The position numbers were made by a program, and so were the translations under genes. Source: an uncultured virus (IMG/VR IMGVR_UViG_3300006802_000088) (lineage: Duplodnaviria > Heunggongvirae > Uroviricota > Caudoviricetes). Taken from it: DNA of 64,000 bases. The notes under the pieces were generated by a model. It saw nothing but the letters and a program-made list of their open reading frames with translations. It was not told where the DNA came from and made no database searches. Location of the stretch: the IMG/VR virus record IMGVR_UViG_3300006802_000088. The stretch is one strand, 5' to 3'. Positions 1,049-63,076 of the stretch are shown piece by piece. Each line of letters begins with the position of its first letter. The first letter of the stretch is position 1.

Positions 1049-1397
1049 AATTGAAAACAATATTGTCCAAGATGTTATTGTTGTAAGCAATGACGTTTGT
1101 GGTTCTGAATTCCCAGCAAGCGAACCTGTTGGTCAGGAATTTATTGCTAATGTTTTGAAATTGGACGGAGAATGGAAGCAAACTTCTTACAATCATAATT
1201 TTCGCAAACATTATGGCGCACCTGGGTTTACCTATAATCAAGAAGTTGATATTTTTATTCCCCCAGCACCTTTCCCATCTTGGCACCTCGATGAAGAATA
1301 TAACTGGAGGGCGCCAACACCGATGCCTTCTGATGCGTCAAGTACTATCCGTTATTACTGGGATGAAGCAAATCAAGTTTGGGTCTCGGCTGATTAG
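1032..1397 (+). CDS. Conserved phage hypothetical protein (tail-fibre associated)
   Basis: MAHFAKIENNIV...WKQTSYN...FIPPAPFPSW...WRAPTPMP..YYWDE pattern, commonly seen next to phage fibre genes. Confidence 0.7.
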   Translation: MAHFAKIENNIVQDVIVVSNDVCGSEFPASEPVGQEFIANVLKLDGEWKQTSYNHNFRKHYGAPGFTYNQEVDIFIPPAPFPSWHLDEEYNWRAPTPMPSDASSTIRYYWDEANQVWVSAD

Positions 1398-17139: not shown

Positions 17140-17657
17140 ACGGCATCAACCGTGTCTGAATAACCGGCTGCATCAAGAATTGCCAATGCTGCGGCTTCGA
17201 TATGTGGGTCAACACCAAAAAAGGCTTTGACGCAATCTGGAAGCGGTCTTGTTGTTTCGGTCATCGCCAAGACTAAAGGTGAAGCAAATGTAAGTTCATT
17301 GCCGTCTTCGTCAAGAACTTCTTCTCCGTCAATTTCTAAACCAACAGTTGTGTGTGCAATAACCGAACATGCAAATTTTGTTGCATCAAGACCATTTCTT
17401 GTGTCTTCGCCAGCATTTTTGCGCCAATTTTTCATTTGTTGTTGAGTAATGTTTGGACTGATTCGTATTTTTACGCCAGGACGCTCTGGCACTTCCAGCA
17501 AAACAACGCTACGTTCAACTTTTTTTGCAATAACTGATTTAAGTCTGGAAAGCGGAGTTTCCACATCGGTCTGCTGAGTTGAAACCTTGGCTGGCTTGAC
17601 TGCCTTGGTTGTGATTGGTTGCTCTTCGGTTGAATAGAGTGAGTTGTTGTCGTTCAT
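17109..17657 (-). CDS. Tail assembly chaperone (gpG-like)
   Basis: Between tube and tape measure; ends ...DAVDPMKGSSTS*. Confidence 0.8.
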   Translation of the reverse strand: MNDNNSLYSTEEQPITTKAVKPAKVSTQQTDVETPLSRLKSVIAKKVERSVVLLEVPERPGVKIRISPNITQQQMKNWRKNAGEDTRNGLDATKFACSVIAHTTVGLEIDGEEVLDEDGNELTFASPLVLAMTETTRPLPDCVKAFFGVDPHIEAAALAILDAAGYSDTVDAVDPMKGSSTS

Positions 17658-17720
17658 ACTGGAAAACTAGCATAGGCCTAAAGGCCATAGCGGAACTCTT
17701 AACGATTTTATTAAAATCGA

Positions 17721-25323: not shown

Positions 25324-25851
25324 TTAATCCTCTTTCTTTAGTACTCCCCAATCTACTTTCTCTAAAGCAGATAAATTGACATCTGGCCATTTATGTTCAG
25401 AAAGACCCAAATATGAAAGGCCCATTTGCTCCAGTATCCACGCATCGCATTTGTCGTCCGCCCCTGGGTTCCCCCAGACTATTCCGGTTCGAGCGGATAT
25501 GGCTGAAATTACTTCGTTTTTTGAGGCGTTGCCACGTCCTGTAGCAAATTTGGCTCGACATGTAGGCGGTATCTCTATATATGACTTATTTATTTTTTTT
25601 ATTGCAACTCGAACAACCCCTCCAAGTTCGCCTATAGAAAAAGCTTGACCACTTCGTGATGCGAAAGAATACCCTTCTATCAAAACAATATCAACATTTA
25701 AATTTAAAATAGTTTTTATTATGTTTTCAGAAATTTCAATTAGTCTTTCAACTCCAGTAAGTTTAGATGTAATAACACCATTTGCGCTTCCACAAGAATA
25801 GCCAGTAGAAGTTAGGGATAAATCAAGACCCATTAAATTAAGTTTGCGCAC
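25324..25851 (-). CDS. ruvC: RuvC-like Holliday junction resolvase
   Basis: GLDLSLTSTG, IEGYSF, GELGGVVR, KFATGRGNASK, DDKCDA. GTG start lies 7 nt after TAGTAT (leaderless). Confidence 0.85.
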   Translation of the reverse strand: MRKLNLMGLDLSLTSTGYSCGSANGVITSKLTGVERLIEISENIIKTILNLNVDIVLIEGYSFASRSGQAFSIGELGGVVRVAIKKINKSYIEIPPTCRAKFATGRGNASKNEVISAISARTGIVWGNPGADDKCDAWILEQMGLSYLGLSEHKWPDVNLSALEKVDWGVLKKED

Positions 25852-25877
25852 AAAGCACATACTAGTATTTCTGCTAA

Positions 25878-25916
25878 AGCAAAAACCCACCAAACATCCA
25901 GCATGCTTGGTGGGTT
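25878..25916 (-). terminator. Intrinsic terminator
   Basis: AACCCACCAAGCAU-GCUGG-AUGUUUGGUGGGUU-UUUGCUUU. Confidence 0.8.
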
Positions 25917-26026
25917 AATCTAAAAGTAGCGGCCAAAACTGGGAACTACTTTTCAGAATTTATTGCCGCAAAATGCTGGATTTAGGACCACCGCCTTTCT
26001 TCCTCTTAAGGTTGATGTCGGCTGGA
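25878..26026 (-). ncRNA. Candidate structured small RNA (RNA2) with 16S-3'-tail-complementary segment
   Basis: TGnTATGAT -10 at 26038-26033, no plausible ORF, internal hairpin 25953-25922, 14-bp terminal hairpin 25916-25884 followed by a U-run. Confidence 0.55.
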
Positions 26027-26089
26027 AATTAAATCATAACATTTAATTAAAAAGAAGTTTAGTAAAGTAATTTTTTTTAAAAAAAATAT

Positions 26090-26155
26090 CCTATTACACG
26101 CAAAAGCCGAGTGGAGGACCCACTCGACCCTTGCGCCTATAACGGCCCTAAGGTA
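26090..26155 (-). ncRNA. Candidate small RNA (RNA1) antisense to 23S rRNA H69-H70
   Basis: TAAACT -10 at 26166-26161, then UACCUUAGGGCCGUUAUAG and a 17-bp hairpin that pairs fully only on the minus strand (4 G-U pairs). Confidence 0.55.
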
Positions 26156-26210: not shown

Positions 26211-26552
26211 TTAAAGACCAAGACCCCTTTTAGCTAAACCTAAATCAAAAGCTAATTGTGGGTTATTGCCGATTCTTATGTGGCAGGGCCTGCAAACTGC
26301 AAGCACGTTATTTTCATCCAATATCGAACCACCCTGAGAGCGTCGAACAATTTCATGAACATCCCTGCTGAGGTGTTGGTTAAATGTGGTTTTGCCATCA
26401 TGTGCAGCAAATGGCTTACAGGCTTCGCAAAGAAAACGTTCTTTTAAAATTTTCTCAACGAACGGGCGACGTTTTTCGTAGAGTAATTCTTTTTTAACAC
26501 TACGTTTACGTAGGGGTTTTCTTTTTTTAGGGGGTTTTGGATTTTTTTGCAA
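26211..26552 (-). CDS. HNH-family nuclease-like protein
   Basis: CEAC...DVHEIVRRSQGGSILDENNVLAVCRPCH. Confidence 0.75.
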   Translation of the reverse strand: MQKNPKPPKKRKPLRKRSVKKELLYEKRRPFVEKILKERFLCEACKPFAAHDGKTTFNQHLSRDVHEIVRRSQGGSILDENNVLAVCRPCHIRIGNNPQLAFDLGLAKRGLGL

Positions 26553-26585
26553 GCCAAGACCTTTCCTGTGAGGACGAATTAGTTA

Positions 26586-27119
26586 CTAAAGTGTATCAAT
26601 ACCAATATCGTCAAATAACCACTTATTCTCCAAAAGCGCCCATAAGGCTCGGTCTACGGCCGTGTCTTCTAGGTCAAATTCTCTTAGCAGGGACCTGTGG
26701 GCAGAAATGCCTCGCTTTAAAAAATCAACTTCTTGCCAACCATCACTTACCAGCATTTCTTTGCCCGTCTCTATCATGACGGTAACTTCATCAAGGCGTC
26801 TATCAACATGAAATTTAAATCTTTTAATCTTCATCAACCTTGCCGCGTATGCAGATTTAGCTTCTGCTGCAAGACGTCGACCAGTAGGGCCCATTGATTC
26901 ATATCTAGTTTTATCAATTTCGGCATCTTCCTCAATTGATTCAATTTGGTCTTGGATGTTGTTGGAAAGAGCGACTAGGGCCGTTTGCCATCTACCCCAA
27001 TTGTCTTTGTTTAAAAGTTCTTTTTTATGCAATGGGGAAATTTTATTTTTAACGTCTTCTGCAACTATTCTTGCAAATGAATCATCATTCATCATTTTGT
27101 ACCACTCCACGCTGGACAT
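26586..27119 (-). CDS. Hypothetical protein
   Basis: 177-aa ORF in operon; start uncertain. Confidence 0.6.
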   Translation of the reverse strand: MSSVEWYKMMNDDSFARIVAEDVKNKISPLHKKELLNKDNWGRWQTALVALSNNIQDQIESIEEDAEIDKTRYESMGPTGRRLAAEAKSAYAARLMKIKRFKFHVDRRLDEVTVMIETGKEMLVSDGWQEVDFLKRGISAHRSLLREFDLEDTAVDRALWALLENKWLFDDIGIDTL

Positions 27120-32861: not shown

Positions 32862-35800
32862 ATGCCCTCGATGCAGAATGCGGAAATACAATACAAAGCC
32901 AGTGCGGGCACCTTCAATCTCGACGAGGCTCAAGGCATTGTCGAGTGTTTTGTTGCGGGTATTGGAAATAAGGACTCGGTTGGCGATGTTTGCGCAACTG
33001 GAGCTTTTGCTAAAAGCCTTCTAAGAAGAAAACCGCGTGTGGTGTGGGGCCACAATTGGAATGACCCAATAGGTAAGGTTTTGGATATTTACGAGGTTCC
33101 AGCAAGCGACCCTCGTCTACCAATGAAGATGAAAATGGCTGGTATTGGCGGCCTTTATGCAAAAGTTCAATTTAACCTTCAATCAGAGAAGGGCAGAGAA
33201 GCTTTTGCGAACGTTGCCTTCTTTGGCGAAGAGCAAGAGTGGTCAATCGGCTACAAAACACTAAGAGCCCAATACGACCAAAATATGCAAGCCAACATTC
33301 TCTATGAGGTTGAGCTTTATGAAGTCAGCCCTGTTCTGCATGGGGCCAATCAACTCACTGGAACAATTTCAGTTAAAAACGACTCTGGAAAATCTGACAC
33401 GATTGAACGTGCAGTATTTGCTTCTGGGCCTATGCAGGAAGCTGTAAACGTTACCCCTATTGCGTCTCGAGAAAATAATACAGAAGACGATTTACTACAA
33501 AAAATATCTAGCGAATTAGAAAAAAGAACAGCATCAAAAATAAAAATTGTATCTCTTGATAAAAACTCAGTTGTTTTTGATAGGCAAACAAGTGATGGTC
33601 TTGTTTCTAAGTACATGTGCAAATATCACTATGACGGTCAAGAGTTAATGTTCGGGCAACCACAAAGAATAGTTATTCAAAAACCAAACATTAATCCATC
33701 AATAGTTCCTTCTCAGCAGGGTAAACCAACCATGCATGGAAGAGTAACAAAACCAGTGCCTGTTATGCCAATGCCCGTAGCAATTAAGCCTGGAGAAAAC
33801 GGTCCTATTTCCATACCTTTGCCTGTTGTTGTTTATGAAGATTCTTCAAAAAATAAACCAACCACACCAAAGCCGCTAGACAACGAAGAGCAAGCTTTGG
33901 CTGATGCGCTTGTTCGTATAACCAAAAAATACGGCAAGTTCAATGAAGATAAAAAAGGTGTTTACGCGGCCTATACACCAGCGGCAGAAAATGAATTAAT
34001 CAATATTGGAGTTAAATGTTCTAATTGCATTTTCTTTAAGGGAGAAGGTTCTTGCAAGATTATAGATAAAGCCGTCGAAGCCGATGGTCGCTGTAGGTTC
34101 GCAGTTATTCCGCCAGGTGTTGTTGGGGGAAGCGCTATAGATAAAAAAGAATATAACGATTTCTTGGATGAAGAAGAAGTCAAATGGGTCGAAGATATTG
34201 AAGAAAAATATCCAGGCGAATTTATTTTTGGAGTGTTGAGGAACATAATAAAGAGACGCAATAAAAAACGCAAAAAATATAAAGAACTAAATGAATTTGA
34301 TGCGGAAGAATACGCAATCAAGGAAAAAACTTTAGCTTCAGGAAAAGAAAAATTCTTTTATATCCCTGTTGATGTGGAAAATGCTTTTGAAGTAAAATCT
34401 TTACTGGACGCAGTACTGGACCACCATAGGGTTGATTCGTTTGTTGATGAATATGGAATTGTTTTAACATCCGGACTAACAGCCGAATCAGTCGATGCAA
34501 TAAATATTGCAGTAAAAGGCATTGGGACAAGAATAGGAAAAAGAATTGGCAGCAGTCTAATCGATAGACCGAGAATCGGTGACAGAAGAAGCCTTGGTGA
34601 CAGAAGAAGAAAGCTTGGTGACGGAAGAATTGACATACCTACCGGCGGTATGCGTGGCACAAAAAAACCAACAGGAAACCGTCGTGACGTTGATGGTGAT
34701 GGTTGGGCTGATGAAGGCACCACGAACCCAGTATGGGTTGGTCTGCCTTCGGGTACAGACAAAAAACCCACACCATCAGGTACTGGTAAACCCAAAAAAC
34801 GCACTCCAATCTGGGAGCAAAATCGTCGCCCAAGCCCACCAGTCCCTTCGCGACCCAGAGAGTTGTCGGATGACAAAAAACCAGAATCACGTCGGACACC
34901 TCCTCCGGCTCCCCCAAAACCAAAGCCTACAAAAACCCCATCTTCACCACCTCCACCCCCTCGCAAAAAAGAAAAACTATCTTCAGGCACAAAAGATATT
35001 ACTAGACATCGTTCTGCCAAGAAACTAAAAAATCCAGCCGAAGACGCAAAAGAAACAGACTTTGAAAAGATTGCAAATTCATGGCGCGAACAAGGATTGG
35101 GTTGGGTAGAAATTCCGCGATACCCGGCTGACAAAAAACTAAGCAACGATTTCTTGCGCGGCAGGGAACTTGGGTACAACCAAGTAAGAGTGATGTGGAA
35201 TGGTTCGGGCACCTATAAGCGGCCAGCCAATTTTAACGAGAAAGCAAAATCTTCGGTTGAATATAGGACTTGGTTTTTGAACACAGCTAAAACTGCTGGC
35301 GAATACATAAAAAACAGCCGTAAAAGCAGTAATACGAGCGAAGCAGAGAAGGAAATAAATTTTGGCATTCCCGAAGGCATAGAAAACTTTTTGGATGCAG
35401 TGAAGCCAAATGTCTCTGGCTTGAGCATGAACGACAGAAAAGAATTTTTTGGTGCACTAATTCAATATAGGTTAGTACCAGAGAGAGACATATTTGGCGG
35501 AGATTATGGCCTCAGAGGTGCATACGTATACCCTAAAGCCATAGAACCTAAACCAAGCAAAAAACTCAGCAGCGGCAGAAAAGTACCATTCCCTGAAGCA
35601 AAACCAAAGCGCACATCAAAACAGCAACGAGATGACGAAAAAATTTACAAGCGTCGCAACGACGGAGAGTCTCTCGCCGATGTTGCTGAAAGCCTTGGTC
35701 TTTCTCGCGAGGAAGTAAGAAAACGTGAGCAACGACACATGCGTCGTCTTCGCAAAGAAGAGGGCGAAAGACTAAGTGAAGATTCAAATCGTTCCGGTGA

Positions 35801-38800
35801 AACACTGTCTTCTGGACGACGAGAGTACGAAGACAAATCAAAGACTTCGGTTAAAAACATGCCGGCAGATGTTCGGGCGTTTCTGAACCAACAAATCGAA
35901 TCCCAAAGAAAGATAAACAAAAACTCAGATGTTGCAAAACTCTATGAAAAACTTAGAGATGGGTTTGAGTTGGACGCCAAAGAGCGAGACTTCATTATCG
36001 ATTCCCTTGACCGAATTGAAAAACTTTCTACGCAAGACAGCCGCGTATATACCCCTGGACAAAGAGCTTCAGCAAGAAGATTAAATGCGCTTTTGAATAA
36101 AGACAACCCAAATTTCCGGGCCCCCAAAGGAACAGAGTTAAGAGACCTTGATGTTCCTTTGCGTATGGGGGAAGGCGGAAAACTATCTTCTGGACGCGAG
36201 GGCCGAAATCCATTTTACGAGGGTATGCGCGGAATGGATTTCATAAACACAATGAACGGCACTCCGGAAAATTTAAATTTCGAACAAGCTTCAAGAAGAA
36301 GTGACGATATAGGCGCCAACTTTAGGTATTTGCGCGACGCTAAACGTGGTGATTCTTTTGAATTTGAATACAGGGGGAAAATAGTAGAGGTTCACCCTGA
36401 ACCAGGTGAATCTGTTTATTCCACTATGCGACGCCACGAAGATGGGTACTTGTATTTTGTCGGCAGAGCGAAAAGGTCAATTAATCGGGATACCGGGAAA
36501 GAGGAGTATAACGATGGGGTCAACAAAGATGAAAAACCTAGTACTTTTAGGCTAGATTCAATTAATGGTTTGATTTTAGGGGCAGACCATGCTGATAATT
36601 ACTATAAAGAGGGTTACGACCCAATAAACGACAGATTTGTTGACATAGAAGAACAGAGAATCGCTGCACGAAAAGGTCCAAAAAAACTATCTTCTGGACG
36701 TAAAAAAAAAGGGAAGATAACTAAACGTAAACCATTCTCCCCTGAGGACCGACAAAGATTTGCTGACGGAGACCGGTTAAAAGCCAGAACAATTCCGGGC
36801 AAAAAGAAGCCTGGCCCAAGTATTGATGAATTCAGATTAAGCAGTGGATACGGCGGAGGGTCGAGACCTGCTCGTCGTCTTGCTCAATTGAATCGCCGAG
36901 AAGTTGAGCAAATCTATATTCAAGAATCTAGGGGCATGGAAGAACAGGCTAAAAATCTTTTAGCCAATCTCAAAACCCCATCGTTTGACGAAAGCCTTGA
37001 AAAAGGTTCAAAATTAGAGACCATTCGTGGAAATCTCAAGAAAGCATTCACAACTCCAGCGCTTGTTGGTTCTCTGTCGGATAATAAAAACAGAAAAAAA
37101 GACGGACCATGGATGCTTTCGTTTGAAAAATTAAGACCCCTTTTGAGAGACTCTAAGGGCGAACCAATGTCCGATGAAAACATTAAAAAAATGTTTAATC
37201 TCAATGAAGACGAAATGAAAAAATTGCTAGGGAAAAACGGCGCAATATCGTCTGCTTCTGTTCAGTCGTATTTGACTGCACATTCAGATACTAACCTGCC
37301 CGGCGAATCAGATGGACTAATCAGAAAAGTTTGGGGATTTGATTCTGCCCCATACTGGTATGACGGCCTAGAAGATAATAAGCCAGTAAGTCGTGAGGGT
37401 TATGACGCCGCCAAAGACGAATCAACCTTTTTGGCTGCCATCTACCCCTTGGATGCACCTATAGATTTTAAGACTTCAACCGAAATAGATGAAGACGCTC
37501 TTCCTAAAAAGAGAGAAATAGTTGTTGCAGAAGATGTAAAGCGCTCAATAGAAAGCGTGAAAGGAAAAGAATCTAAAGAGGCCTACAGTCTTGACAAGTT
37601 AATTGAAAAACTTAATATGCCAGCTGATTCAGGAAAAAATCGAGAAGAAATAGCTAAAGCTTTTGAGAAGTTACTAGGGGTCCCAACTAGCGCGGAACAA
37701 TTATTTACTTCTCCAGGTTCATGGAGAAGAAATGGTGTACCAACAAATGTGATTTTAGAATTAAAAAAACGTAAGCACATTACTAGTGCTGCCGACGTTT
37801 TTGGTAGTGATGAAGCCAAAAACTTTGACAAAGCAACAGAACAAAATAAATTCTTTAGTGCTTTAGATAATCTCCTAAGAGCAAATGGGATACAAATAGG
37901 AGGAGGTAAGGGCAATCTTTCGGACAGAGTTATTGGTGAAATTATGGGAGACGCTATTGGCTCTAAGCCTTTGGCAAAAATAGGTCGAGCCTTTAAAAAG
38001 GCTGGAGAAGAAAGGCCTTTTACTTACAAAGTGGGCGCCGCTGTCGTTTGGACTCCAGAAGAAATTCAAAAAACTCTTGATGGAATTAATAGAGTAACAG
38101 GAAAAGATTTTAAAGTTTCTGACCTCAAATTAAGTAGCGGCAAATTCGGTAAAGGTGAAAGAAAAGTAACACCAAAATTATCTTCAGGCAGAACTGGGGC
38201 TGAGTCTTTTTCAGCGAACGAATCAATTAACAAAATTGACGAAAGATTGCGTACAGCCAAAAAAAGAGGCTCAAAAGTATTTAATGAAATGCTTCGAGCA
38301 GAAAGTAAAAAACAAAGTTCTCAAAAAGCAAAACCGAATCCACTAGACAAAATGAAAGATGGTGAACGTCTTTCATCGGGCAAACTTGATGAAGTTTATA
38401 AGTCAATCACTCAAAAATTAATTAAAGCAATAGAGACTGCTGATGGAGATAAGTGGGAAGCTCCTTGGTACAAAGTTGGTGCATTCCCTAAAAATCCAAC
38501 CAATAAAAACCGTCCATACTCAAACACAAACTTATTGTTCCTGTTAATGGCGCAAGAAGATAAGGGATACACGAAACCATATTGGGCAACATATAAGCAG
38601 TGGGAAAAATCTGGCGGCCAAGTCAGGGCTGGAGAAAAAGGAACCAAAATTCTCGTCCCAAGAGTTTACAAAGCAAAAGAAGATGATGAGGGCAACAAGA
38701 AAGGCGGCGGAGTATTTTATTCAGTTGCAACGGTATTTAATGTCGACCAAGTAGATGGCGTAGATGTTGAGGAGATGGAGAATAAATTTCCAAAACTTTC

Positions 38801-41800
38801 AGAAGAGCAAAGAGTTTCTCAACTTGAAAGCGCTATTAAAGAAATAGGTGCAAAGATTACCGAAGCCGAATCTGATAGGGCTTACTACAGTCCATCAAAA
38901 GATGAAATAGTTCTACCAAAATTTGAAAATTTTAAATCTCCTTTGGATTTTTACGCGACTCAAGCTCACGAATTAATGCACTGGACCGGACACACATCAC
39001 GTCTAAATAGACCAAACATGAATTATTTTGGTAGTCCAGAATACGCATACGAAGAATTGGTAGCAGAAATTGCTTCTGCTTTCTTTATGGCAGCACATGG
39101 TCTCTCCGCGGAGCCGCAGCCACAGCATGCGATGTATCTTGCTTCATGGCTTAAGCGACTCAAATCAGACCCTGATGCTCTGCAAAAAGCAGTTTCCGAT
39201 GCACAAAAAGCTGTAAATTTCGCCATCAAACTGTCCCCGAGCATGAGTAAACAAATGGCCGTATCAGAAAACGTAGATGACGTGCCTGGGATAACGGTCC
39301 CCGACACTGGCGGCAAGTTGTCGTCGGGTAAAACTCCTGATTTACCTGCTCTTACTAGGGCGCTCGAAAACGCAGGGCTTGCTGAATCAGTAACCGAAAA
39401 TATGATTACTGAAGCTATTAGTGTATGGAAGGACAACCCTTCGCTACATAGGCAATATATTGAGCGTCTTGACGGAGATGTTAATGGCGCAGTGTTCTCT
39501 CTCTATAACGATTATCTCGAAGATATGTTTGACCGCTCTCCAGAGGGAGCCGCAAAAATAGAACGCGAGCTTGATGAACAATATGAAGCAACACAAAGCC
39601 TTTCGTCAGGCAGACCATCAAAAAGACTTTCGCGTCGACTAAAAGATGATGAATCATCAAAACTTTCATCTGGCAAGCAACCATGGGATGACCCCGCTGT
39701 ACAGAAAAGATTAATAGACGGTGCAAGAACAAAAAAGAAAACCAAAGCCGATGGTAAAACCGAAAGTTACATGGCAAGCATGGTTAGACAATTTGACGCA
39801 GGGAAAAAACTGACAGACAATCAGTGGAAACCTCTGTGGGAAAGCTTCGGCGGCGAAACCTCGGCCACGAAACCAAGCACACCGTCGACTGCATCAACAA
39901 GTAAAGCCCTTAAGCCATTTAGCGGCCTTAAGCGTAAAGAAATAGACCTGTCTGATGTTAAAAAATATGATTACCCAACGACTGATGCTAAAGGAAAGAA
40001 AAAACCACTTCCGACAGAAGAGCAATCAGATGCGATAGATGCAATGATGACCGGCAGTGACGTTAAGGTTGCCGCATTAGCCGCAACCGGTAAAACTACT
40101 ACGGTAATCAATTTTGCAAATCGACTTCTAGATGAAGAACCTGAATCAAGAATTCTTTATTTAGTATTTAATAAAAATGCTGAAAGAGACGTTGTAAAAC
40201 GTGGCATGCCAGAAAACGTAACAGTCAGAACAATGGACGCAGTTGCCTTCCGCGCCATGAAAACAATTGATTCGAAAATGACTGACAAAAGTTTTAATCC
40301 ATCAATAAAACCAATCAAGTCTTTCCGAGATAGAGCGGCATATCTTGGTGTCAAGAGAATGGTGTCTCGGGGAGACGAGCTAACATCTGCCGATGTTGTG
40401 AAAAGAATAGCAAAAGCCGTAGAACATTTTTCGATTAGTAGCGATACGGAAATCGGACCAAAACATTTTAATGGAAAATTTAATGGAAAGCTTGCTGTCG
40501 ACGATGATGCAATACTCCCGGAATTAGTGGCACTTGCCAACAAGTACTGGAAAGATATTAAAACTCCACGAGATGGAGTTGCTGGAATGTTGCCAGTCAA
40601 TAACACACATATTACAAAAATGTGGGCTTTATCAAAGCCAGACATAGGTTCATCAATGGGTGTAAATATCGCAATGGTCGATGAGGCGCAAGATATGAAC
40701 CCGGTTTTTGCTGAAATTTTACAAAAAGCAAATAAGGTGCAAAGAATATATATAGGCGATACAAACCAGGCCATAAATGCTTGGCGCGGCGCGGATGGAC
40801 AGACTCTTGTCGACGCTTCAGCTAAATACACAATGCCAATAACTGATTCGTTTAGATTTGGTAAAAATATTGCAGGCATAGGCAATAGATTTCTTTCGCT
40901 ACTTGGAGCTAAGGAAAAAATGAATGGTCGGAAAGTGGATAAATCCGGCAACCCGGTAGATGGGCTTATTGGGAACGTAGAAAATCCAACAATGATTCTT
41001 ACTCGCTCAAATGGTGGAGCGATGGCCGCAACGATGAAGAGTTTTGAAAAAGGCCTAACCGTCTATGGCAGCAAAAACTTCAAAGAAGATTTAACAAAAT
41101 TTATTGACAATGTTGAATACATGGAAACATCCGCTAATGGCAAAAAAGGTTATTACACCAGCGCTGATGGTAGAAAAATCTATGAAAGACCATCAATGAG
41201 TCAAGACCTTGATGGCATCAGCAATATTAAAGAATTTAAAGAAGCAGTGGAAAAGGGTGATGATAATAGGCTAAATATGCTTAACAAGCTGTTGAGCGAA
41301 CATGGCGTTGAAGAACTTCGAGATGCCCTTGGCAGAATCATAACCGATGAAAAAAAATTACCCAAAAACCGTGATGAATATGTTCACATACAGACAGCAC
41401 ATACGTCTAAGGGTCTAGAGTCGCCCAGAGTCCAAATATGGAGCGATTTTGCTAAACCCAAAAAAGCTACCGATGGCACAAACATCACAATAATGCCCAA
41501 CGAGCAAGAGCTCAGACTTTCTTATGTGGCGGTCACCAGGGCTGAAGAAAAACTAGATTTGGGTTCTTTGTCGTGGATTTATAATCATACGAGCGACGAG
41601 GATGGCGCATCGAACAAACTCAGTTCCGGCGCAAACTTGTTGATGCCGAGACTTTCTGGAACACTTTCGAACGCCATAATTAATTCAACACCGGCGGCTC
41701 GTAAAATGAGGAAGGAATGGAAAAAGCGCGAATCAATGTCTGGACACCCATCTAAGAGAAAGGGTATAAAATTAAGTTCCGGAAGATATCTTAATTTTGA

Positions 41801-42200
41801 ACGAATATTGTCTTCGGATGAACTTGATGACAACCTAGAACCAATTAGGGGGCCTTATGGGGACCCATATGACTCAATCCACCGAAAGCAAGTCAGATAT
41901 GCGGTTCGCCGTTTCAAACATACCGAATCCGTTCCAGTCCGTCAGCGTAGTACTGGGTTCCCTACTGGGCGTATGGTTGAAAGAACCAGGACATATTTCT
42001 GGATTGAAGACATGAAGACCAACCAAACCCCAGTATGGGCTTCGGGTATTTTTTACTACAGAAACCATCTAATAGGAAGATTACAATCACACCTAAATTC
42101 GTTGTCGGAAGACGAAAAAGCCGCACTAGTAAAAGAATACGAAAAAAGTGCCAAAACATTTACCCGTCGTACGAAGGATGAATTAAAAATTCCATCCTAA
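32862..42200 (+). CDS. HK97-type prohead protease fused to multidomain cargo (HTH, WYL-like, ArdC-N plus zincin metallopeptidase, UvrD helicase)
   Basis: N-term DSVGD...GAFAKSL...WGHNWNDPIG...EWSIGY...LYEVSPVLHGAN; later WATYKQW...VRAGEKG, HELMHWTG...YAYEELVAE, ATGKT/VDEAQD/GD.NQAI/TAHTSKGLE/YVAVTRA. Confidence 0.9.
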   Translation: MPSMQNAEIQYKASAGTFNLDEAQGIVECFVAGIGNKDSVGDVCATGAFAKSLLRRKPRVVWGHNWNDPIGKVLDIYEVPASDPRLPMKMKMAGIGGLYAKVQFNLQSEKGREAFANVAFFGEEQEWSIGYKTLRAQYDQNMQANILYEVELYEVSPVLHGANQLTGTISVKNDSGKSDTIERAVFASGPMQEAVNVTPIASRENNTEDDLLQKISSELEKRTASKIKIVSLDKNSVVFDRQTSDGLVSKYMCKYHYDGQELMFGQPQRIVIQKPNINPSIVPSQQGKPTMHGRVTKPVPVMPMPVAIKPGENGPISIPLPVVVYEDSSKNKPTTPKPLDNEEQALADALVRITKKYGKFNEDKKGVYAAYTPAAENELINIGVKCSNCIFFKGEGSCKIIDKAVEADGRCRFAVIPPGVVGGSAIDKKEYNDFLDEEEVKWVEDIEEKYPGEFIFGVLRNIIKRRNKKRKKYKELNEFDAEEYAIKEKTLASGKEKFFYIPVDVENAFEVKSLLDAVLDHHRVDSFVDEYGIVLTSGLTAESVDAINIAVKGIGTRIGKRIGSSLIDRPRIGDRRSLGDRRRKLGDGRIDIPTGGMRGTKKPTGNRRDVDGDGWADEGTTNPVWVGLPSGTDKKPTPSGTGKPKKRTPIWEQNRRPSPPVPSRPRELSDDKKPESRRTPPPAPPKPKPTKTPSSPPPPPRKKEKLSSGTKDITRHRSAKKLKNPAEDAKETDFEKIANSWREQGLGWVEIPRYPADKKLSNDFLRGRELGYNQVRVMWNGSGTYKRPANFNEKAKSSVEYRTWFLNTAKTAGEYIKNSRKSSNTSEAEKEINFGIPEGIENFLDAVKPNVSGLSMNDRKEFFGALIQYRLVPERDIFGGDYGLRGAYVYPKAIEPKPSKKLSSGRKVPFPEAKPKRTSKQQRDDEKIYKRRNDGESLADVAESLGLSREEVRKREQRHMRRLRKEEGERLSEDSNRSGETLSSGRREYEDKSKTSVKNMPADVRAFLNQQIESQRKINKNSDVAKLYEKLRDGFELDAKERDFIIDSLDRIEKLSTQDSRVYTPGQRASARRLNALLNKDNPNFRAPKGTELRDLDVPLRMGEGGKLSSGREGRNPFYEGMRGMDFINTMNGTPENLNFEQASRRSDDIGANFRYLRDAKRGDSFEFEYRGKIVEVHPEPGESVYSTMRRHEDGYLYFVGRAKRSINRDTGKEEYNDGVNKDEKPSTFRLDSINGLILGADHADNYYKEGYDPINDRFVDIEEQRIAARKGPKKLSSGRKKKGKITKRKPFSPEDRQRFADGDRLKARTIPGKKKPGPSIDEFRLSSGYGGGSRPARRLAQLNRREVEQIYIQESRGMEEQAKNLLANLKTPSFDESLEKGSKLETIRGNLKKAFTTPALVGSLSDNKNRKKDGPWMLSFEKLRPLLRDSKGEPMSDENIKKMFNLNEDEMKKLLGKNGAISSASVQSYLTAHSDTNLPGESDGLIRKVWGFDSAPYWYDGLEDNKPVSREGYDAAKDESTFLAAIYPLDAPIDFKTSTEIDEDALPKKREIVVAEDVKRSIESVKGKESKEAYSLDKLIEKLNMPADSGKNREEIAKAFEKLLGVPTSAEQLFTSPGSWRRNGVPTNVILELKKRKHITSAADVFGSDEAKNFDKATEQNKFFSALDNLLRANGIQIGGGKGNLSDRVIGEIMGDAIGSKPLAKIGRAFKKAGEERPFTYKVGAAVVWTPEEIQKTLDGINRVTGKDFKVSDLKLSSGKFGKGERKVTPKLSSGRTGAESFSANESINKIDERLRTAKKRGSKVFNEMLRAESKKQSSQKAKPNPLDKMKDGERLSSGKLDEVYKSITQKLIKAIETADGDKWEAPWYKVGAFPKNPTNKNRPYSNTNLLFLLMAQEDKGYTKPYWATYKQWEKSGGQVRAGEKGTKILVPRVYKAKEDDEGNKKGGGVFYSVATVFNVDQVDGVDVEEMENKFPKLSEEQRVSQLESAIKEIGAKITEAESDRAYYSPSKDEIVLPKFENFKSPLDFYATQAHELMHWTGHTSRLNRPNMNYFGSPEYAYEELVAEIASAFFMAAHGLSAEPQPQHAMYLASWLKRLKSDPDALQKAVSDAQKAVNFAIKLSPSMSKQMAVSENVDDVPGITVPDTGGKLSSGKTPDLPALTRALENAGLAESVTENMITEAISVWKDNPSLHRQYIERLDGDVNGAVFSLYNDYLEDMFDRSPEGAAKIERELDEQYEATQSLSSGRPSKRLSRRLKDDESSKLSSGKQPWDDPAVQKRLIDGARTKKKTKADGKTESYMASMVRQFDAGKKLTDNQWKPLWESFGGETSATKPSTPSTASTSKALKPFSGLKRKEIDLSDVKKYDYPTTDAKGKKKPLPTEEQSDAIDAMMTGSDVKVAALAATGKTTTVINFANRLLDEEPESRILYLVFNKNAERDVVKRGMPENVTVRTMDAVAFRAMKTIDSKMTDKSFNPSIKPIKSFRDRAAYLGVKRMVSRGDELTSADVVKRIAKAVEHFSISSDTEIGPKHFNGKFNGKLAVDDDAILPELVALANKYWKDIKTPRDGVAGMLPVNNTHITKMWALSKPDIGSSMGVNIAMVDEAQDMNPVFAEILQKANKVQRIYIGDTNQAINAWRGADGQTLVDASAKYTMPITDSFRFGKNIAGIGNRFLSLLGAKEKMNGRKVDKSGNPVDGLIGNVENPTMILTRSNGGAMAATMKSFEKGLTVYGSKNFKEDLTKFIDNVEYMETSANGKKGYYTSADGRKIYERPSMSQDLDGISNIKEFKEAVEKGDDNRLNMLNKLLSEHGVEELRDALGRIITDEKKLPKNRDEYVHIQTAHTSKGLESPRVQIWSDFAKPKKATDGTNITIMPNEQELRLSYVAVTRAEEKLDLGSLSWIYNHTSDEDGASNKLSSGANLLMPRLSGTLSNAIINSTPAARKMRKEWKKRESMSGHPSKRKGIKLSSGRYLNFERILSSDELDDNLEPIRGPYGDPYDSIHRKQVRYAVRRFKHTESVPVRQRSTGFPTGRMVERTRTYFWIEDMKTNQTPVWASGIFYYRNHLIGRLQSHLNSLSEDEKAALVKEYEKSAKTFTRRTKDELKIPS

Positions 42201-61337: not shown

Positions 61338-61793
61338 ATGAGCAACAATACGTGGGGAACATATAAAGGACAAATATCTGGATTTCGTTTTGAGACAAAA
61401 GGTGATTCAGCGGCAGAAAAATGTCCAAAAGCCACAAAAGACATAGCCGTTAATCTTCGCAATCGTAGTAACGCAATCAAAACCGCCATGTATGGTCCGT
61501 TAAACCCATCTGAACCAAACGAGGATTATTGGAAGAAACTTGGCAAGGAATGGGATGTTGACTCCGTCAGCGCTAAAAAACAACTATGCGGCAACTGCTC
61601 TCTTTTTATTAAGACTCCGTCTATGATGGCGTGCATCGAAAGCGGCGTAACCGGAGGGGAAAGAAAAGATGAGTGGGACGCAATTGATGGTGCTGGACAG
61701 CTTGGTTATTGTGAGGCATTTGATTTCAAGTGTGCATCTAAGAGAACTTGTCGTGCATGGGTTACCGGTGGACCTATCACTAAGGAAAAATAA
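61338..61793 (+). CDS. Cys-rich conserved phage protein
   Basis: CPKATKD...YGPLNP...CGNC...GYCEAFDFKCASKRTCRAW. Confidence 0.7.
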   Translation: MSNNTWGTYKGQISGFRFETKGDSAAEKCPKATKDIAVNLRNRSNAIKTAMYGPLNPSEPNEDYWKKLGKEWDVDSVSAKKQLCGNCSLFIKTPSMMACIESGVTGGERKDEWDAIDGAGQLGYCEAFDFKCASKRTCRAWVTGGPITKEK

Positions 61794-62061: not shown

Positions 62062-62859
62062 TCACTTTCCGAATTTAGTTATAATAACATGCCCATCTCG
62101 ATGAGACGTGGGTGGCAATGTGTCAATAGCAAGAATTCGCTGCACCCATCTATCGGTACCGTCATATCGAGCATCAAATGGCCGACGACCATGTACTGTT
62201 GTCTTGTTATTTATAACAAGTAAGTCTCCTGTTTTTAGCACTATCTCACGGGTGCAATTTTTAATTGCATTTTTAAGGTGCATCAAGGCATTAGTGGCTT
62301 CATCATTTATGCCCTTCATTAAAACCTCATCGTAAGTTATATTGAAAAATCGGTCAACATTTACGTTTTTTGAAAAATCTTCCCTCAATATGGAGCAAGT
62401 AATTTCCATATCTAATTCACCGTTGGTTCGAAAACTTTCATCAATAGAGGTGGTGAACCATAACTTTGTTAACGTATCTATAACTGATGGTTCAAGATGC
62501 TTAACAATTTCATCAATATATGCGTAGGTAGTTATAGCGTTTGGGTCGCCACGAAGACAAAGCAACAAAACAGCGGTGGGTTTGTAGGGGTGAAATGCTG
62601 TTTCTGTGTGCAAACCAAGTTCTATTTTTGATGAAGTAGAAATCTGTTGATTTTCTGTTTTCTTAATTGGAAATATATTTTGAATTAATTCACCCTTTTG
62701 TTCTTGGGCAAAACTTATTGGCCAACCATAAACCTGAGCATATTTTAAAAGTATATTGCGAGATGGGTTTAGCGTTAAATTATTAAAATTTGAGTTTTTG
62801 GGCGTATTTGGAATATCGCCAATATCCAGATTCTCGACAAGGACAATACCTCTATCCAT
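62062..62859 (-). CDS. TauD/clavaminate-synthase-like Fe(II)/2OG oxygenase
   Basis: LHTETAFHP..P..VLLLCLR...GDLLVINN..VHGRRPF..RYDGTDRWVQR. Confidence 0.9.
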   Translation of the reverse strand: MDRGIVLVENLDIGDIPNTPKNSNFNNLTLNPSRNILLKYAQVYGWPISFAQEQKGELIQNIFPIKKTENQQISTSSKIELGLHTETAFHPYKPTAVLLLCLRGDPNAITTYAYIDEIVKHLEPSVIDTLTKLWFTTSIDESFRTNGELDMEITCSILREDFSKNVNVDRFFNITYDEVLMKGINDEATNALMHLKNAIKNCTREIVLKTGDLLVINNKTTVHGRRPFDARYDGTDRWVQRILAIDTLPPTSHRDGHVIITKFGK

Positions 62860-62866
62860 AGGAGAT

Positions 62867-63076
62867 TTACTCTAGTACAGAATCCGCCTCTATCCAGACC
62901 CTAGCCCCACACTTATCTGGTGTATCTGACTGCACAACTTTGGCTGCCTCATGTCCACAATTTGAGCAAATTATCGTAATGCTCTTGCTGTGTTTGGAAC
63001 CCTTATAGGTCCTATCAATAATCGCAGCGAGGCCTTTTTTAATCTTTTGTTGATGAACGTGAATAATATGTTTCAT
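62867..63076 (-). CDS. Hypothetical protein
   Basis: IIHVHQQKI...CGARVWIE, a small phage protein pattern. Confidence 0.65.
   Translation of the reverse strand: MKHIIHVHQQKIKKGLAAIIDRTYKGSKHSKSITIICSNCGHEAAKVVQSDTPDKCGARVWIEADSVLE

Follow-up and report, generated by a model that had tools for sequence, protein, structure and literature searches.

A conserved, structured small RNA gene of freshwater phages with a long complement of the 16S rRNA 3' tail: a candidate ribosome-directed RNA

Does the 350-nt gap between a small HNH protein gene and a RuvC-like resolvase gene in the genome of an uncultured tailed phage encode an RNA directed at the host ribosome? An original prediction had placed there a tandem pair of ribosome-directed RNAs, here called RNA1 and RNA2, the second of which would carry a 16-nt complement of the 16S rRNA 3' tail without an ORF behind it. 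The DNA that was analysed (IMG/VR record IMGVR_UViG_3300006802_000088), referred to below as the window, is 64,000 nucleotides long, has a G+C content of 40.7% and comes from a large, tailed phage. On the minus strand, the genes follow each other in the order large terminase, Rad52-like annealase, Cas4-like exonuclease, a 177-aa ORF, the HNH protein gene (26552..26211), the 350-nt gap and the RuvC-like resolvase gene (ruvC), after which come ParB-like and PAPS-reductase-like genes and then the tail genes. Here we present a description of the RNA2 unit, its relatives and its RNA neighbor, and weigh the readings to which they give rise.

The stretch was found in 19 DNA runs labeled as freshwater, lake, aquatic or river metagenomes (16 studies); four of these runs are a possible source of the window, and the stretch was present in at least 12 studies beyond those. 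A Pfam search of the window yielded neither WhiB nor any other gene indicative of the host, and the only Rfam match at gathering score was one tRNA, the window carrying a tRNA-Arg(TCT) gene. Metatranscriptome X20 contains one 231-nt contig of the stretch (26363..26593, within the HNH gene) and X24 contains none of it; as contig-level metatranscriptomes cannot show small RNAs, neither bears on the expression of RNA1 or RNA2. The HNH gene upstream of RNA1 (26211..26552, minus strand) is, across loci L009, L013, L014, L017 and L020, present in some relatives and missing from others that keep both RNAs, a pattern which, judging from gene content, is that of a free-standing mobile endonuclease gene. 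Elsewhere in the window, a polyvalent protein of 3112 aa (32862..42200, plus strand) combines a prohead protease, a sigma-70 region 4, an ArdC N-domain, an MPTase-PolyVal peptidase and a UvrD helicase. Another very large ORF, encoding 2649 aa, was without a Pfam match.

The RNA2 unit extends from 26041 to 25879 on the minus strand and consists of an extended -10 box, a unit of about 150 nt and a strong intrinsic terminator. The TGnTATGAT promoter of the original prediction is present as TGTTATGAT (26041..26033), assigned by sequence reading and conservation; the box is kept in relatives, with TGnTAnnnT at the same position in all those aligned (variants TGTTACTCT, TGCTAACCT, TGGTACTCT and others). 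The hexamer TTTACT (26066..26061, minus strand) stands upstream at a distance of 22 nt from the -10 hexamer and does not qualify as a canonical -35 element; the promoter assignment rests on the extended -10 box. A consensus promoter scan of the window, which requires a -35 element, did not list this promoter. Transcription would start approximately 7 nt downstream of the -10 box.

Following the transcript from this putative start, the 5' end UCCAGCCG (26026..26019) provides the 5' strand of a pseudoknot whose partner is the terminator loop, and AGCCGACAUC (26023..26014) was recognized by sequence reading. Hairpin P2 (CCU-UAAG-AGG, 26011..26002) stands directly before the segment complementary to the 16S rRNA 3' tail, AGAAAGGCGGUGGUCC (26000..25985), here called the super Shine-Dalgarno (super-SD) core. 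It is followed by a second UCCAG box, hairpin P3 (GCA-UUU-UGC), for which alignment A3 shows covariation, and a conserved GGCAA (together 25980..25963). The internal hairpin noted earlier appears in the minimum free energy fold as P4 (approximately 25954..25922), which differs in sequence and length among relatives. The terminator, likewise noted earlier, was found by a terminator scan at 25916..25884 (14 pairs), followed by a T tract to 25879, and has the loop GCUGGA (25902..25897). Four places in 25859..26026 (minus strand) carry a CTAG or CCAG box: the 5' end of RNA2, the stretch preceding P3, the loop of the terminator and the -10 box of ruvC; the pseudoknot accounts for the first and third of these only.

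Relatives were sought in IMG/VR with RuvC as bait, and 80 loci were fetched from 183 confirmed relatives. The invariant core GGTG[GA]TC was present in 38 of the 55 unique ruvC-upstream regions from these loci, and promoter box, motif and terminator are kept across phages whose RuvC proteins are just 58-70% identical. The kept elements are TGnTAnnnT, a 5' UCUAGCC, the core GAAAGGC(A)GGUGGUC, a hairpin followed by GGCAA, and a terminator ending in GGGUUUUUGC, with the middle of RNA2 varying freely; GGUGGUC is invariant or nearly so in alignments A2 and A3. Model R1 found a single RNA2 copy in the window, with 110 bits. A scan of bacterial genomes for the bare motif yielded at least 120 stretches, 99 of which were scored with R1; the best reached 23.3 bits, as compared with 110 for the window. 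We take these matches to be due to chance, no host copy having been found among the 99 scored. Regarding phages, a search of 50,697 GenBank records with 1301 nt of the window gave no match, the module of a relative gave chance matches only (E 0.3 or worse) against the same records, and the nearest record, a 38.5-kb fragment (G001), showed no match.

The Rfam search and homologue alignment suggested together with the original prediction revealed a unit conserved in IMG/VR relatives and belonging to no Rfam family. Within Rfam 15 (including T-box, ykkC, SurA and FinP), RNA2 had no match at gathering score, the best match at its region being SurA with 19.9 bits against a threshold of 100; the loci of 12 relatives gave four matches, all below threshold. 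A ykkC-like or T-box-like fold for RNA2 was considered and is unsupported by these scans.

Could the unit instead be a small mRNA, in which an extended SD drives or throttles the translation of a micro-peptide? Such a gene is known in the rreB/rreR pair of alpha-proteobacteria, in which a 16-17 nt complement is joined to a GTG start (PMC5711450), and a GTG within the motif of RNA2 (25991..25989, minus strand) opens a frame of 12 codons in the window. The absence of a start codon asserted in the original prediction therefore holds in one respect, as there is no ATG, GTG or TTG 5-10 nt behind the motif in the window; the inner GTG had been overlooked. In the rreB/rreR RNAs, as described, the ORF is conserved and its GTG takes its first letter from the final base of the complement, whereas the GTG of RNA2 lies inside the complement (PMC5711450). 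By our reading of the alignment, the frames that start from the inner GTG in relatives range from 4 to approximately 27 codons, share no residues and are shifted by indels, which makes a conserved ORF or peptide unlikely. The conserved small ORF behind the SD-like element that would have spoken against the original prediction was not found in the frames of the relatives. The absence of a start codon at SD distance in the window also argues against a small mRNA, and we regard translation of a micro-peptide as a most improbable function of the unit.

The secondary structure is supported by covariation. Pairs were counted on alignment A3 (24 representatives), in which 91.8% of the cells are paired overall, as compared with 32-43% when the partners are slid, and 13 of 23 pairs show compensatory changes. 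For P3 (columns 68-71 with 85-88) the values are 96.9% of cells and four of four pairs; for the terminator stem (columns 139-148 with 160-169) they are 97.9% and five of ten. The pseudoknot between the 5' end and the terminator loop (columns 10-18 with 151-159) is paired in 82% of cells, with changes on both sides in four of nine pairs. Its helix reads UCCAGC/GCUGGA in the clade of the window and UCUAGC/GCUAGA in most others, with G-U intermediates seen and a clade-dependent extra pair, either A-U or C-G. Covariation together with G-U intermediates in a long-range helix points to pairing in an RNA rather than to a repeat in the DNA. P2 was left out of the counts because its register shifts between clades; in our reading of the alignments it comprises 3-5 bp in every clade with differing sequences (CUUC/GAAG, UUUCC/GGAAG, CUCU/GAGA, CCA/UGG).

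How accessible the super-SD core would be is less uniform among the predictions. It is unpaired in the RNAalifold consensus, and its mean unpaired probability in single-sequence ensembles is just 0.19-0.53. From the alignment, the GGUGG of the motif could pair with a CCACC in the 5' strand of the terminator; the terminators vary (GGUGGG/GGCGGG) and the motif is constant. Taken together, the conserved unit, its covarying structure and the absence of a shared frame indicate that RNA2 is, as far as comparative sequence data go, a real, conserved, uncatalogued, structured and ORF-less phage RNA.

The same structural data bear on the idea that the locus is an element of the DNA, such as a protein-binding site or a homing-endonuclease site near the HNH gene, or that its features are a chance resemblance. 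Two observations speak for this: the HNH gene lies upstream, and CTAG boxes occur four times in 200 bp. Yet some loci have the RNA module and no HNH gene, others the HNH gene and no module, and the G-U intermediates of the pseudoknot and the A/G changes opposite U make sense for RNA pairing and not for DNA identity. We consider this explanation very unlikely.

To what would such an RNA bind? The 16S rRNA tails fetched for comparison, which may not be those of the host, were from three actinobacteria and a Variovorax and all end in GCGGCTGGATCACCTCCTTTCT. Against them, AGAAAGGCGGUGGUCC forms 14 Watson-Crick pairs and one G-U pair with one mismatch over 16 positions, exactly as had been counted originally; the mismatch is a C opposite the U of CCUCC. 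The duplex of the core of the window with the tail has an energy of -24.8 kcal/mol, the mean over the entire window being -8.1 (sd 3.2). When 127,954 24-nt windows are ordered by the energy of their duplex with the final 22 nt of 16S rRNA, the site comes fourth, and nowhere else in the window are 14 or more of the 16 positions paired. However, at least one site with 15 of 16 pairs arises in 14.7% of 300 shuffled sequences, so that the case for more than chance rests on conservation and not on the match itself. The strongest duplex with the last 22 nt of 16S rRNA in the window (61392..61415, plus strand, -26.9 kcal/mol) lies in an ORF (61338..61793), involves the helix-45 part of the tail and is probably due to chance.

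Conservation of the pairing potential is pronounced. All 43 unique full-length relatives are predicted to form a duplex of -21.3 to -28.6 kcal/mol with 15-19 pairs to the 16S tail. The clades have arrived at different solutions. The upstream part of the core reads GAAAGG, GAAGGG or GAGGGG and the downstream part GGUGGUC or GGUGAUC; the center is C, CA, CG, A or G and gives, depending on the clade, a C mismatch, a bulged C with A or G after it, or a helix without interruption. The last of these is found in the L290 and L350 clades (one statement of the analysis names L290 alone). As read from the duplex table, the core carries either A or G where it faces a U of the tail and invariably G where it faces a C, which is the pattern predicted for pairing with a fixed partner. 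These comparisons support the view that the most conserved segment of RNA2 keeps a strong potential for pairing with the 16S tail in relatives.

Small RNAs that combine a seed with a terminator and act by base pairing, of the RybB and OmrA/B type, are common, and their known targets are mRNAs. RNA2 might likewise be an ordinary small RNA whose purine-rich core targets a pyrimidine-rich site in an mRNA of host or phage, or a protein, the likeness to an SD being incidental. Two features would suit this explanation: the central unpaired C of the SD core, which most clades keep and which would be needless in a pure 16S binder, and the additional conserved boxes UCUAG and GGCAA, both of which 16S pairing leaves unexplained. 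On the other hand, a search of the window for the complement of the motif with up to three mismatches returned the gene itself only, pairing of the RNA1 seed with RNA2 does not exceed that of shuffled seeds, and the pattern of variation agrees with a single, unchanging partner that has the 16S tail sequence. An ordinary target is thus, in our estimate, improbable.

Further ribosome contacts had been proposed for RNA2. Its 5' end was said to complement the adjacent 16S rRNA, and UCCAGCCG is indeed the exact complement of 16S CGGCUGGA; the same UCCAGCC, however, pairs with the terminator loop of RNA2 itself, and this pairing covaries. Likewise, the 10-nt complement of the 23S peptidyl-transferase center (PTC), AGCCGACATC, is an exact antisense match in all three actinobacterial 23S genes searched but is broken in the large L013 clade (AGCCAAUAUC). 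With the 5' end used internally and the PTC match broken in a clade, the case for these extra contacts is weak. Other rRNA matches in the window are exact over 14-15 nt only and are as numerous as expected by chance. At 1280..1293 (plus strand, within an ORF), 14 nt match exactly the 23S segment that immediately precedes the PTC site; such a match occurs at chance frequency.

RNA1, the neighbor of RNA2 (26155..26097, minus strand), begins with a 19-nt seed, UACCUUAGGGCCGUUAUAG (26155..26137), followed by a long terminator-like hairpin. The seed forms 19 pairs, including one G-U, with 23S CUAUAACGGUCCUAAGGUA in the Variovorax and Halomicronema sequences; this target comprises the loop and 3' strand of helix 69 and the following linker. 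A perfect or one-wobble complement of 16-18 nt (given elsewhere in the analysis as 16-19 nt) to the helix 69 site of the same two 23S sequences is present in 16 of 18 RNA1 representatives. The site is identical in the 23S rRNA of Pseudomonas, Rhizobium and Puia, and the exact site occurs in 102 of 301 sampled Actinomycetota genomes, among them an unpublished one (G097) on which no conclusion here rests; in Arthrobacter-type actinobacteria, the site differs by two mismatches, which changes the duplex energy to -21.2 from -32.0 kcal/mol. An alignment of 17 diverse copies shows no variation in 16 of the 17 seed columns, and the hairpin is paired in 99.2% of cells with compensatory changes in 12 of 14 pairs. 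Only two seed variants were seen, both A-to-G opposite U.

RNA1 is widespread, its motif having been found in more than 120 IMG/VR contigs among the matches listed, often without RNA2; RNA2 follows in 61 of 95 unique RNA1 copies, again from the matches listed. An interaction between the two RNAs was considered and rejected, as the RNA1:RNA2 pairing energy of -17.3 kcal/mol hardly differs from the shuffled-seed mean of -16.9 kcal/mol and 43% of the shuffles do as well. The 23S segment matched by the seed is the target of the homing endonuclease I-CeuI, and a DNA-level reading was therefore considered for RNA1 as well; it was discarded in view of modules without the HNH gene, HNH genes without the module, and seed variants that change A to G opposite U. 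By its sequence, RNA1 is an rRNA-directed candidate, in line with the tandem pair of the original prediction, and on the sequence evidence it is the stronger case of the two RNAs.

The position of RNA2 raises the question of whether it is a gene in its own right or the 5' UTR of the ruvC operon, with the super-SD serving as a stabilizer or standby site of the STAB-SD type and the terminator as a read-through attenuator. Wherever the flank extends far enough, RNA2 is immediately followed by ruvC; a RuvC N-terminal motif occurs no more than approximately 600 nt from RNA1 in 64 of the 95 unique loci, and 22 of the 31 others have cut flanks. Moreover, ruvC has no SD of its own, and the distance of approximately 135-150 nt from the motif to the ruvC start is similar to the 129 nt described for cry3A (PMC4113751). 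Against a leader stand the strength and conservation of the terminator (10-14 G+C-rich pairs and a U tract) and the absence, in our reading of the alignments, of a covarying alternative anti-terminator pairing.

The start of ruvC itself is also informative. A -10-like box, TAGTAT (25864..25859), precedes the GTG of ruvC (25851..25849, minus strand) with 7 nt in between, and by our reading a TAnnnT box 5-9 nt before the GTG or ATG of ruvC, without an SD, is present in all 18 module-bearing sequences examined. In loci without RNA2, TAnnnT, 5-9 nt and a start codon follow directly after the RNA1 hairpin, an arrangement in keeping with a leaderless ruvC transcribed from its own promoter and a further point against a leader. 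Three loci without the RNA module (L049, L074 and L077) have a ruvC with an SD of the GGGAG type. The sequence data suggest that the GTG at 25851 is probably a leaderless start from a separate promoter, and such a promoter would favor RNA2 as a stand-alone gene rather than a leader; that RNA2 acts in cis on ruvC appears unlikely to us. Two more operon heads in the window combine a -10-like box with an ATG and no SD, at 17657..17685 (minus strand, TGCTAGTTT-N6-ATG) and at 62859..62885 (minus strand, TAGAGT-N9-ATG), and may, by the same sequence features, be further leaderless starts.

We therefore return to RNA2 as an independently transcribed, structured, non-coding small RNA of freshwater phages that docks on the 30S subunit via a super-SD without a start codon, a reading to which the sequence evidence leads us to give an about even chance. 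RNA2 (approximately 150 nt) would be transcribed from the extended -10 promoter to the strong intrinsic terminator, with the pseudoknot tying its 5' end to the terminator loop and a super-SD of 15-19 nt, with no start codon behind it, between P2 and P3. This segment would pair with the single-stranded 3' tail of the host 16S rRNA and so dock the RNA on the 30S subunit, a step for which rreB (PMC5711450) and STAB-SD (PMC4113751), as described, provide precedents. With less confidence, we suggest that docked RNA2 would occupy the anti-SD and alter the choice of mRNAs by the host ribosome, and/or that the bound 30S subunit would shield RNA2 from 5' exonucleases. Sequestration of 30S subunits and a bias toward leaderless mRNAs, as envisaged in the original prediction, are pure conjecture. 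Approximately 22 of 53 phage gene starts in the window are preceded by an SD whose duplex is at least as strong as -6 kcal/mol; many genes of the phage thus rely on initiation by an SD, and a general anti-SD sponge would hit the phage too.

RNA2 is one half of a module aimed by its sequence at rRNA, the other half being RNA1 with its invariant seed antisense to 23S helix 69. It is conceivable, if rather doubtful, that the two form an RNA-only device directed against the ribosome, in which RNA2 would clamp the anti-SD tail and RNA1 would anneal to helix 69, blocking or redirecting host initiation and ribosome assembly while the operon heads of the phage itself, such as the leaderless ruvC, would be read in another way. 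RNA1 would then target the core of an intersubunit bridge (the helix 69 loop and 3' strand), either in free 50S subunits or in nascent rRNA. The takeover of translation by phages is known from proteins, and natural RNAs aimed at rRNA are not described in the literature searched. If RNA2 binds 30S via the anti-SD, it would represent a compact and portable way to tune initiation; if RNA1 binds helix 69 as well, the two would represent the first case of natural antisense agents directed at two functional centers of the ribosome.

How does the module compare with known systems? RNA1 resembles RybB and OmrA/B in having a conserved single-stranded 5' seed and a variable terminator hairpin, and RNA2 does so more loosely; unlike these mRNA-directed RNAs, the matching partners found for RNA1 and RNA2 are functional sites of rRNA only. 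Synthetic antisense oligomers aimed at exposed rRNA sites act on ribosomes and are man-made; RNA1 and RNA2 are likewise antisense to rRNA sites but are natural and phage-borne. A natural phage counterpart of such anti-rRNA agents was not found in the literature searched.

Regarding RNA2 alone, the closest likeness is to rreB/rreR, which are described as small mRNAs, each with a promoter and a terminator to itself, in which 16-17 nt are complementary to the 16S 3' end; rreB measures 165 nt, has a 17-nt complement and co-sediments with 30S, its extended SD impeding translation (PMC5711450). RNA2 is also small, with a predicted promoter and terminator of its own and a long complement of the 16S 3' end. 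In contrast to the chromosomal rreB/rreR with their perfect complement, as described, it is phage-borne and has one conserved unpaired C in most clades. Where rreB/rreR are defined by a perfect complement of at least 16 nt, the window has 15 of 16 pairs with a C-U mismatch, and a mismatched or bulged C is present in most clades. Where they have a conserved ORF of 14-18 codons whose GTG shares its first base with the end of the complement (PMC5711450), the GTG of RNA2 lies inside the complement and the frames vary. RNA2 further differs from rreB, which was compared by its description, in the pseudoknot between 5' end and terminator loop and in its anti-23S partner RNA.

STAB-SD, from the cry3A mRNA of Bacillus thuringiensis, is reported to pair with the 16S 3' end and to hold the 30S subunit without initiation; it is a short 5' UTR element of a long mRNA, which it shields from RNase J1 (PMC4113751). 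The motif of RNA2 is similar in being 16S-complementary, in its position approximately 27 nt from the putative 5' end and in having no start codon at SD distance. Unlike STAB-SD, however, RNA2 ends at a strong terminator and would be without cargo unless read through; its motif is parted from ruvC by this conserved terminator and a separate -10 box. Its complement to 16S is two to three times longer than that of STAB-SD as described. RNA2 would thus resemble rreB/rreR and STAB-SD in the binding step and, by the features that define each in the published descriptions, falls outside the former and probably outside the latter.
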